From a virus (lineage: Duplodnaviria; Heunggongvirae; Uroviricota; Caudoviricetes), in the IMG/VR virus record IMGVR_UViG_2713896779_000022: DNA of 35,191 nucleotides; one strand, 5' to 3'. Positions within the stretch are counted from its first letter, which is position 1, and the number at the start of each line of letters is the position of its first letter. Under the pieces are notes generated by a model. It saw only the letters and a list, made by a program, of their open reading frames with translations. It did not search any database and was not told the DNA's origin. The position numbers and the translations under genes are program-made. Positions 1,186 through 1,900 of the stretch are shown here, one piece after another.

Positions 1186-1220
1186 CCAAAAAGAAACCCC
1201 GCAGTTTTTACGCTGCGGGG
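1186..1220 (-). terminator. rho-independent terminator (hok-like transcript end)
   Basis: On minus strand: GC stem CCCCGCAG / CTGCGGGG (1197-1204 / 1213-1220) followed by TTTCTTTTT (plus-strand 1186-1196). Confidence 0.6.
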
Positions 1221-1308
1221 TTGTTATTCATGCCTATGAGATAGGGTGCCTTATCGGCCTTACCCTAGCAACCGATTGACGGGGAGTTGCCTCCCCGTCG
1301 CGGTTTCC

Positions 1309-1449
1309 TTACTGCTTACACTGTAAGAACGCCGCAAACTCCGCTCCCCAGAAGCTCATCCGTATTTCACACAGCGAACCGTGCAGCATCCAGATGATGA
1401 GGATTACCGTCACGCAGAACGTGATGGCCGTAAGCGATTTTTGCGACAT
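1309..1449 (-). CDS. hok: Hok/Gef/PndA-family type I toxin (small membrane peptide)
   Basis: 46-aa ORF MSQKSLTAITFCVTVILIIWMLHGSLCEIRMSFWGAEFAAFLQCKQ, below the 60-aa cutoff of the supplied track; single TM helix then the family motif SLCEIR...E.AAF; 3' hairpin GACGGGGAG-TTGC-CTCCCCGTC at 1278-1299. Confidence 0.7.
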   Translation of the reverse strand: MSQKSLTAITFCVTVILIIWMLHGSLCEIRMSFWGAEFAAFLQCKQ

Positions 1450-1579
1450 AGCGCTTGCTCCTTTGTTGGAGAGGCGCTAACCTATCACTTGCTAAGGTTA
1501 GACGGTTAGGGCCTCGGTTAAACAGAAATGTTTTCCGGGGCCTTTCCACATCTGGCCTTCGGGTATTCCCTCCGACCAT
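1367..1579 (-). CDS. mok-like overlapping reading frame (translational coupler for hok)
   Basis: 70-codon ORF in a different frame that starts upstream of and overlaps the hok-like ORF, as in hok/mok/sok loci (mok of R1 is also ~70 codons). Could equally be a chance ORF. Confidence 0.3.
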   Translation of the reverse strand: MVGGNTRRPDVERPRKTFLFNRGPNRLTLASDRLAPLQQRSKRYVAKIAYGHHVLRDGNPHHLDAARFAV

Positions 1580-1639
1580 CAGCCGAAAGGCACCCGCGCG
1601 TAATCTATCGCTTTTTTGTTACTCCGGCAATTCTGCCTG

Positions 1640-1900
1640 TTAATTCTGAGATAAAGGCAAACTCATCTGATTGTTTCCCCTGTGTGAAGCTGGCAGCTCA
1701 TGCCACGGGATACCTTCTGAAGAGTGAACGCCGGAGGCGTGTTTTGATGTGAATTTATGGAAAGCTTCCAGTGTTGAGAAGCATACGCCGCATTCCAGAT
1801 TGTTACACTGGTAATACTTTTGCCGCACGGTGTTTGAATCATTTTCCGGACGACTGGTGCGGATACGGGCAGATGCGCCACAAAGCGGACAACGGAACAT
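1640..1900 (-). CDS. ogr: late gene activator Ogr (zinc-finger transcription factor)
   Basis: 86-aa ORF starting MFRCPLCGASARIRTSR...YYQCNNLECGVCF, the C-x2-C...C-x4-C pattern of P2 Ogr/186 B; directly downstream of D as in P2. Confidence 0.85.
   Translation of the reverse strand: MFRCPLCGASARIRTSRPENDSNTVRQKYYQCNNLECGVCFSTLEAFHKFTSKHASGVHSSEGIPWHELPASHRGNNQMSLPLSQN

Follow-up and report, generated by a model that had tools for sequence, protein, structure and literature searches.

A probably complete hok/sok-type toxin-antitoxin cassette carried beside ogr by a P88-like prophage

Plasmid R1 possesses two stability loci, hok/sok (the hok/mok/sok or parB locus) and parMRC, and the chromosome of Escherichia coli K-12 harbours hok loci of its own, including hokA, which are reportedly adjoined by insertion sequence (IS) elements. 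In R1, translation of the mok open reading frame (ORF) up to the Shine-Dalgarno (SD) sequence of hok is mandatory for Hok synthesis (PMC9841398). Prophages carry such loci as well: hokW-sokW of the Stx2 prophage Sp5 of E. coli O157 Sakai has been shown to be a toxin-antitoxin pair of type I whose Sok RNA is lost on induction and with which phage release is doubled (PMC8621323), and a 2025-26 preprint cataloguing Hok proteins reports that hok is four-fold enriched in prophages (10.1101/2025.08.07.668861). Here we analyse a stretch of viral DNA of 35,191 nucleotides (nt), the IMG/VR record IMGVR_UViG_2713896779_000022, which is referred to as the window throughout. Our analysis indicates, with a probability that we put at about 0.9, that positions 1187-1633 on its minus strand form a complete hok/sok-type type I toxin-antitoxin cassette of Hok 'cluster 72', carried as cargo by a P88-like prophage.

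The minus strand of the cassette comprises a promoter, a structured messenger RNA (mRNA) of about 406 nt, the gene for a Hok peptide of 46 amino acids (aa), a 3′ hairpin, an fbi element and a terminator, while the plus strand holds a candidate sok promoter and a predicted antisense RNA (Table 1). A preliminary description of the window had placed a Hok-family type I module at the ogr end of the prophage, and the parts expected of such a module, namely the peptide, the fold-back mRNA, the 3′ hairpin, the terminator and a candidate sok promoter at the R1 position, are all present. The likeness to R1 hok/mok/sok includes the Hok-family membrane peptide, an mRNA of about 400 nt, the tac/fbi fold-back between its 5′ and 3′ ends, the tac stem, a target hairpin that begins with GAGGC, the hok SD AAGGAG in sequestered form and a presumably protective hairpin at the 3′ end. 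It extends to the candidate sok promoter, which occupies the same relative position over the hok SD region, and to the tail and stem-loop of the predicted Sok. However, the window Hok has 46 aa against 52 aa in R1, with similarity at the family level only, and the leader is about 28 nt shorter, so that the hok AUG lies at +147 instead of +175-177 (the R1 position being deduced from the G176T start-codon mutant). In addition, the window has no start codon where R1 has its mok AUG, the subfamily shows no conservation of a mok ORF, and the window cassette is phage-borne whereas that of R1 is plasmid-borne.

The minus-strand peptide, which had been called Hok/Gef-like in the preliminary description, belongs to the Hok family. 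It matches Pfam HOK_GEF (PF01848) with 30.1 bits, above the gathering cut-off of 22 (E-value 3.7e-7, profile positions 5-42 of 42), and PHROG 251 with 82.8 bits. Residues 6-22 form a hydrophobic N-terminal helix, and the peptide carries C12, T14, L26-C27-E28 and E37, which are all the positions with more than 80% conservation in the Hok catalogue. A search of PDB sequences with the peptide found nothing. The nearest named NCBIfam model is that of the K-12 chromosomal HokA (NF007290), whose score of 35.8 bits is far below the equivalog cut-off of 89; the window Hok belongs to a distinct Hok subfamily and is not HokA. The SLCE...AAFL.C motif, which we take to be present in HokA, is shared with the window Hok. 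An IS element reportedly lies near hokA too, but in the window the IS does not disrupt the locus.

At the protein level no difference exists between the window Hok and its catalogued counterparts: it is identical to RefSeq WP_000078920.1, annotated as 'Hok/Gef family protein', and to entry 1628 in the chromosomal set of the Hok catalogue, a member of the abundant 60%-identity cluster 72 (10.1101/2025.08.07.668861). Two peptides of this cluster, 72_1621 and 72_1589, were cloned under an arabinose promoter in that study, and neither is among the three of 45 peptides found to be non-toxic (19_179, 60_1482 and 69_1540; 10.1101/2025.08.07.668861). The former differs from the window Hok by V15A and equals the protein of phage Chuche, and the latter is the protein of the copy found in Shiga toxin (Stx) phages. 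The toxicity test that the preliminary description had proposed therefore appears to have been effectively answered by the literature on near-identical cluster-72 peptides. The catalogue explicitly leaves mok and Sok unanalysed, as it does the mRNA elements of this cluster (10.1101/2025.08.07.668861). The hokW-sokW system of Sp5 resembles the window locus in being a prophage-borne hok/sok, but its HokW is 51 aa long, begins with MKQQKAM (as read from primer YO-357) and is HokC/D-like, of another subfamily. We rejected the equation of the two loci because of these differences in length and N-terminus; the term 'MokW-like' on phage annotations of the window gene is a PHROG label and not a statement of orthology.

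The RNA architecture is the second line of evidence. The predicted 406-nt hok transcript folds with a minimum free energy (MFE) of -183.3 kcal/mol, against -134 +/- 5.5 for shuffled sequences (z-score, z, -8.9), and its local hairpins have z values from -3.5 to -5.4. Folding for tac and fbi elements, as had been suggested beforehand, returned both the long 5′-3′ helix and the tac-stem hairpin, in which GGG.GCCUUUC pairs with its partner within the first 60 nt (Table 1). The GC-rich 3′ hairpin and the downstream intrinsic terminator noted in the preliminary description were likewise recovered, the latter by a terminator scan on both strands; this terminator is bidirectional and also ends a convergent small ORF from the left. 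The Rfam model RF01794 matches 1439-1595 on the minus strand over its full length (1-157) with an E-value of 7.5e-9. Despite its name, 'sok antitoxin', the model matches the hok-sense strand, with a consensus that stops at the start region of hok. It describes the hok leader and not the antisense RNA, so that strand calls taken from it are misleading.

Comparison with relatives shows that the fold is maintained. The full-length fold of the window was mapped onto 19 aligned homologues with identities that reach down to 68%, and here 94.8% of the cells pair against about 40% in slid controls. This gap is inflated since the mapped structure came from the window itself; less bias attaches to the double-sided changes, with 18 such pairs against 8.5 +/- 1.8 in shuffles, a level reached in 0 of 500. 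The compensatory changes lie in the 3′ hairpin and the long-range helices; in the 3′ stem-loop they affect three pairs, where GC is replaced by AU in seven of the 19 sequences. The fbi helix is paired in 95.7% of cells and the helix of the hok SD hairpin in 95.2%. RNAalifold consensus folding pairs columns 1-11 with 51-60, which is the tac stem, and also predicts the Sok-target hairpin in columns 85-131; both align to the structure of the Rfam model. By eye, the inner 5′ and 3′ arms of the fbi helix read CGGC/GCCG in the window, CGAU/AUCG in Salmonella enterica diarizonae and CGACC/GGUCG in Citrobacter braakii; as MAFFT gapped the S. diarizonae 5′ arm, this swap is outside the covariation counts.

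The hok and sok promoters were assigned through positional homology with R1 and through conservation, and not by consensus strength. Both hok promoter hexamers are kept in the Stx-phage copy despite unrelated sequence further upstream, and TAGAnT stands at a fixed distance from GGGTGCC in the Escherichia albertii, C. braakii and Stx-phage copies. For sok, the preliminary description had pointed to the plus strand at about 1500-1620. A candidate promoter was indeed found on that strand, but it lies at 1455-1483, and sok as a whole would cover 1455-1547. Its -35 hexamer overlaps the complement of the hok SD, and the complement of its -10 hexamer TAACCT is invariant in all 19 homologues. The sok promoter of R1, which we take to be TTGCGC-17-TATCCT, is at the same position; both of these hexamers are found in the R1-type sequence, and the Rfam alignment sets the R1 and window hexamers at matching leader positions. 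The predicted Sok has a Sok-like shape, with a fold of -22.9 kcal/mol (z -3.1).

Selection on the cassette is uneven. In a set of 41 distinct nucleotide variants whose identity to the window is 90% or more, variability is lowest in the hok coding sequence, with a mean column entropy of 0.04, and all 41 encode only three proteins. The most variable segment is the patch complementary to the 5′ tail of Sok (1484-1509, mRNA nt 87-112), with an entropy of 0.41 and with indels, which makes it about 10 times more variable than the coding sequence. At least 10 sequence variants of this patch with +/-1 indels occur among cassettes that are otherwise about 95% identical. A conserved coding sequence next to a variable patch is the pattern expected of a functional toxin gene with diversifying antisense recognition, and the hypervariability suggests that antisense specificity diversifies between co-resident copies, which occupy up to seven places per genome. 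Chromosomal Sok RNAs do not cross-protect against R1 hok, which is consistent with such diversification.

The preliminary description left it undecided whether the cassette belongs to the host, a plasmid backbone or the phage end. Our analysis assigns it to the phage and excludes host and plasmid backbone. From window position ~1186 rightwards, 24 kb share 95-96% identity with P88, P884B11 and Chuche, which are Xuanwuvirus (Peduoviridae) phages, and the genomes of the isolated phages P88 and Chuche contain the cassette. A region of 581 base pairs (bp) is 100% identical to the chromosomes of O121:H19, O103 and other E. coli, where a 'Hok/Gef family protein' is annotated beside ogr, and the locus is matched in 1549 of 5426 complete E. 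coli genomes. Hok and ogr are adjacent in all P88-like phages examined. The gene order int, (presumably) attP, variable cargo, hok, ogr and D is found in Chuche and in a 34.5-kb circular record. Judged from these matches, the cassette is phage cargo in the slot beside attP, and neither host DNA nor plasmid backbone. The circular record (NZ_CP148288.1) is labelled a 'plasmid' and represents a complete P88-like phage with integrase, cox, ParM/ParR and an identical Hok.

Another copy of the cassette occurs in Stx2a phages, at a separate locus and in another context, with 83.6% nucleotide and 76% amino-acid identity. Homology with this copy starts at the -35 hexamer and ends right after the fbi arm, which delimits the mobile unit at about 390 bp.

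Table 1. Positions of the cassette elements and of neighbouring genes in the window
Feature	Position	Strand	Description
hok promoter, -35	1625-1630	-	TTGCCG, read from the sequence; 10 nt below the ogr stop codon; 17-nt spacer to the -10
hok promoter, -10	1602-1607	-	TAGATT, read from the sequence; 7 nt before GGGUGCC
Full-length hok mRNA, ~406 nt	1187-1595	-	+1 placed at 1595 (GGGUGCC) by homology with the R1/Rfam model start
tac-like 5′ element	1581-1595	-	Closed form: paired with the 3′ fbi arm; open form: paired with nt 51-60, GGAAAGGCCCC
Open tac-stem hairpin	1536-1595	-	-35.1 kcal/mol, z -5.1, 94% of the ensemble
'mok-like' ORF, 70 codons	1367-1579	-	ATG start (AUG17); overlaps hok in another frame; listed ORF
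Potential leader start site	1547-1560	-	SD-like GAAGG (1556-1560), AUG45 (1549-1551), GUG47 (1547-1549)
Sok-target hairpin	1471-1515	-	GAGGCC...GGCCUC-like; -18.3 kcal/mol, z -4.0; aligns to the R1 target hairpin (Rfam alignment); hypervariable patch (1484-1509) in its loop and 5′ side
hok SD hairpin	1448-1479	-	SD AAGGAG (1458-1463) paired with CUCC; -14.2 kcal/mol, z -3.5
hok toxin gene, 46 aa	1309-1449	-	MSQKSLTAITFCVTVILIIWMLHGSLCEIRMSFWGAEFAAFLQCKQ; Pfam HOK_GEF, RefSeq identity
3′ stem-loop	1270-1305	-	-26.2 kcal/mol, z -5.4; presumed protective end of the processed, active mRNA
fbi 3′ arm	1244-1260	-	GGCCGAUAAGGCACCC; 15-bp helix with nt 1-15 in the MFE fold
Intrinsic terminator	1187-1222	-	Stem 1195-1222, U-run 1187-1194; found by scan on both strands; -18.7 kcal/mol, z -4.8
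Candidate sok promoter	1455-1483	+	-35 TTGCTC (1455-1460), 17-nt spacer, -10 TAACCT (1478-1483)
Predicted Sok RNA, ~57 nt	1490-1547	+	14-nt single-stranded 5′ tail and GC stem-loop, then UUU; ends predicted
ogr/Delta zinc finger	1640-1900	-	Pfam, 52 bits
gpD	1943-3184	-	
ParR-like Plasmid_stab_B protein	24766-25212	-	
ParM	25082-26041	-	Pfam StbA_N, 272 bits, and ParM C-terminal domain

The alternate-frame ORF of about 70 codons, which had been counted as the mok-like part of the architecture, does exist in the window, but it did not hold as a conserved mok. Begun at GUG47, the same frame has 60 codons, and the ORF has no match in Pfam or NCBIfam. We compared 49 distinct cassette variants drawn from phage records, IMG/VR and the genomes of GTDB. 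In the mok-like frame upstream of hok, an ORF with a start codon is present in only 13 of them, and in 32 no frame offers an ORF that begins in the leader and continues into the region of hok initiation. These 32 include the isolated phages P88 and Chuche as well as the Stx-phage copy, and in most of them the mok-like frame is closed by TAA in CTACCCTAAGC. The 70-codon ORF was rejected as mok because it is not conserved among relatives; it does not count as evidence for the hok/sok architecture and may be incidental in the window. Since the recognition patch is hypervariable, reading frames across it are unstable.

Several points weigh against reading 1187-1633 as an R1-type cassette. The +1 position, the 3′ ends and the expression of Sok at this locus are deduced from sequence only. 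The hok promoter agrees with the sigma-70 consensus at 8 of 12 positions and the sok promoter at 6 of 12, both below the threshold of 9/12 used in our scan, which reported no promoter in window 1000-2000. The score of the RF01794 match, 45.9, is below the gathering threshold of 59, and the match is absent from the list of the whole-window gathering scan. The tac stem is missing from the MFE fold of the truncated mRNA, and thermodynamics alone are therefore no demonstration of the switch. Coupling to mok is mandatory in R1, yet 32 of the 49 subfamily variants are devoid of such an ORF; either activation works differently in these mok-less variants or many copies are translationally silent. Finally, chromosomal hok loci are said often to lack post-segregational killing. 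What our analysis does show is the family membership of the peptide, the covarying RNA architecture, the purifying selection on hok and the presence of the cassette in phage genomes.

With respect to the leader, a potential start site consisting of GAAGG followed by AUG45 and GUG47 is kept in 45 of 47 variants. The ORFs that would start from this site have 10-24 codons, run across the Sok target and end 30-71 nt short of the hok AUG; a minority of variants, among them the window (GUG47, 60 codons), have one that continues into hok, and in C. braakii the leader ORF ends in a UGAUG overlap with the hok start. The site is also part of the tac stem and may have been conserved for structural reasons. 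We nevertheless put forward, as a rather doubtful proposal, that the cluster-72 hok loci constitute a natural 'mok-less' variant of the switch. Hok translation would then be coupled to a leader ORF that is short and variable in length, begins at GAAGG-N4-AUG45/GUG47 and crosses the Sok target, or would need no leader translation at all; Sok would act mainly through the start site and/or through RNase III decay, and in the phage the physiological trigger could be read-through from the late D-ogr operon.

The R1 mechanism as summarised in PMC9841398 served as a template for the window cassette, and an R1-type mechanism is most likely here. A weak constitutive promoter just below ogr would yield a stable mRNA of about 406 nt, the 5′ end of which would be locked to the fbi arm, so that the RNA would be neither translated nor bound by antisense RNA. 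Slow trimming of the 3′ end back to the 1270-1305 hairpin would release the 5′ end, which would then form the tac stem and expose the target hairpin. The short-lived Sok, made from the opposite strand, would pair with this hairpin through its 5′ tail, and RNase III would destroy the duplex. If Sok synthesis stops, through loss of the element or shut-off of transcription, processed mRNA would build up and the 46-aa Hok would be made, which would enter the inner membrane and kill or arrest the cell. The phage might profit in that the cassette, with ParMR, keeps the prophage or episome in the cell, and/or in that it assists lysis on induction, as hokW-sokW does.

What the phage gains from the cassette can be read in more than one way. 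It is possible, although we say so tentatively, that hok assists lysis and release. Late read-through from D-ogr would swamp Sok or collide with its synthesis, Hok would be made on induction only, and the membrane would be permeabilised shortly before the holin acts or together with it. This proposal concerns the role of the locus and not its identity, and is compatible with the hok/sok identification. Hok follows ogr directly on the same strand, its -35 hexamer being 10 nt past the ogr stop codon, and the terminator scan found no terminator-like site on that strand between gpD and the hok terminator; late read-through into hok, against sok, is therefore plausible. The adjacency of ogr and hok, kept in all the P88-like phages examined, agrees with such a coupling, but the same cassette is found in a different context in Stx phages, and read-through transcripts would carry a 5′ extension that might affect the tac/fbi switch. 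The precedent of Sp5, in which Sok disappears upon induction, HokW precedes endolysin by about 1 h and phage release is doubled (PMC8621323), comes from a different Hok subfamily. An equally tentative reading sees an addiction module, which would stabilise the phage genome as an episome in concert with ParMR or would penalise the loss of a chromosomal prophage. ParM and a ParR-like protein are encoded in the same prophage, copies of the cassette are also found in large plasmids, and the 34.5-kb circular record is a complete P88-like genome that combines the identical Hok with ParM/ParR and integrase. However, this record may be an excised replicative form, and the phage has an integrase and is integrated in chromosomes beside the glyW-cysT-leuZ transfer RNA cluster. 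Moreover, the chromosomal hok loci that were tested reportedly gave no post-segregational killing.

Two further readings appear less probable. P2-like phages commonly carry defence genes in the cargo slot beside attP, and the cassette occupies this 'moron' slot, where it has varying neighbours (a methyltransferase and Com, or else a small secreted protein). An anti-phage module, acting by abortive infection or superinfection exclusion and protecting the lysogen when host transcription is shut off, would fit this position, but we consider it unlikely. R1 hok/sok on a high-copy plasmid lowers the plating of T4, according to a citation in PMC8621323, whereas the Hok catalogue reports no enrichment of hok near defence systems (10.1101/2025.08.07.668861). 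More improbable still is a silent or decaying copy, in which the RNA elements persist but Hok is untranslated because a mok-type coupling ORF is missing or irrelevant, as in the inactivated K-12 hok loci. Most variants are indeed without an ORF that reads into the hok translation start, and the hok SD is sequestered in a conserved hairpin; but in the window copy an ORF does continue into hok, the RNA elements are all intact and show covariation, and the reduction of 41 nucleotide variants to three proteins indicates strong purifying selection on the Hok ORF. Near-identical peptides are toxic when expressed. An IS lies about 200 bp away, a situation reportedly resembling that of the K-12 hok loci, yet it ends at 991 and leaves terminator and fbi untouched. 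The options that remain for the role of the cassette identified here are genome retention with ParMR, help with lysis, and exclusion of other phages.

The surroundings of the cassette agree with the preliminary description, which had located it between an IS and ogr and had noted parMR in the same stretch. The right part of an IS3-family element (transposase ORF 61-951) occupies window 1-991; its end at 991 was mapped by BLAST, and an ALIL frameshift pseudoknot is found in it at 19-135. The element ends about 200 bp beyond the terminator, leaving the cassette intact. It cuts a 93-aa ORF (WP_071529678.1), which has a hydrophobic, signal-peptide-like N-terminus by eye and is intact in the E. coli O121 and O103 prophages; only a 3′ remnant is left at 992-1119. 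The junction of this IS was found in none of the complete E. coli genomes searched. IS3-family transposase genes are present at both ends of the window, at 1-991 and at 34397-35110 on the minus strand. The ORFs scanned at the right end included no tyrosine integrase, and the right-hand IS may have removed or displaced the integrase. The ParM and ParR-like genes adjoin the gpA replication gene (26143-28986, minus strand), and the same layout is found in the O103 prophage and the circular record. The early region also contains matches at the Rfam gathering level to C4 antisense RNA (29705-29792, minus strand, 78.5 bits) and isrK (29828-29902, minus strand, 62.8 bits), so that a P2-like phage here carries a pair of antisense immunity RNAs of the P1/P7 type.

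The slot that separates hok from attP differs in content among relatives. In Chuche (L004, 1455-2397) and the circular copy (L094, 110-1076) it contains a DNA methyltransferase with a Com-like regulator, in the O121 and O103 prophages and the window it contains the small 93-aa ORF, and in an IMG/VR relative, L019, it contains an ORF for a membrane protein that is possibly TM2-domain-like by eye. L019 also has, in tandem, a second, AT-rich and divergent hok-like ORF (2590-2727, plus strand) between ogr (2183-2443) and the main hok (3001-3141). It encodes 45 aa that are 49% identical, scores 18.8 bits with HOK_GEF (cut-off 22), and no recognisable GGGUGCC leader was seen for it.

The relatives were found by a profile search from an alignment of four Hok sequences. 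A scan of GTDB gave seven loci only, three of them in implausible taxa: identical or near-identical cassettes occur in assemblies of a Planococcaceae metagenome-assembled genome (L005), a Vagococcus sp. (L006) and Xanthomonas pisi (L009), and these are most likely enterobacterial contamination. The Planococcaceae and Vagococcus peptides are 100% identical and contribute no diversity in protein sequence, and the cut X. pisi contig was left out of the structure and mok analyses. In L016, L021, L024 and about 18 other IMG/VR loci the contig ends exactly 3 nt past the hok stop codon. In these cases the automated calling of prophages has set the boundary at hok, and the 3′ untranslated region, the fbi arm and the terminator are lost.

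A hok/sok cassette at this place is already known and, apart from its leader reading frame, ordinary: RefSeq and phage records annotate the gene, the exact peptide is catalogued, close variants are toxic, and the enrichment of hok in prophages has been reported. For annotation, the cassette marks the left functional end of a P88-like prophage and has been left undamaged by the IS, and the phage holds counterparts of both R1-type stability functions, ParMR and hok/sok. The abundant subfamily to which it belongs keeps every RNA element of the R1 switch but no conserved mok frame, and it therefore offers a natural test case for the necessity of mok coupling.

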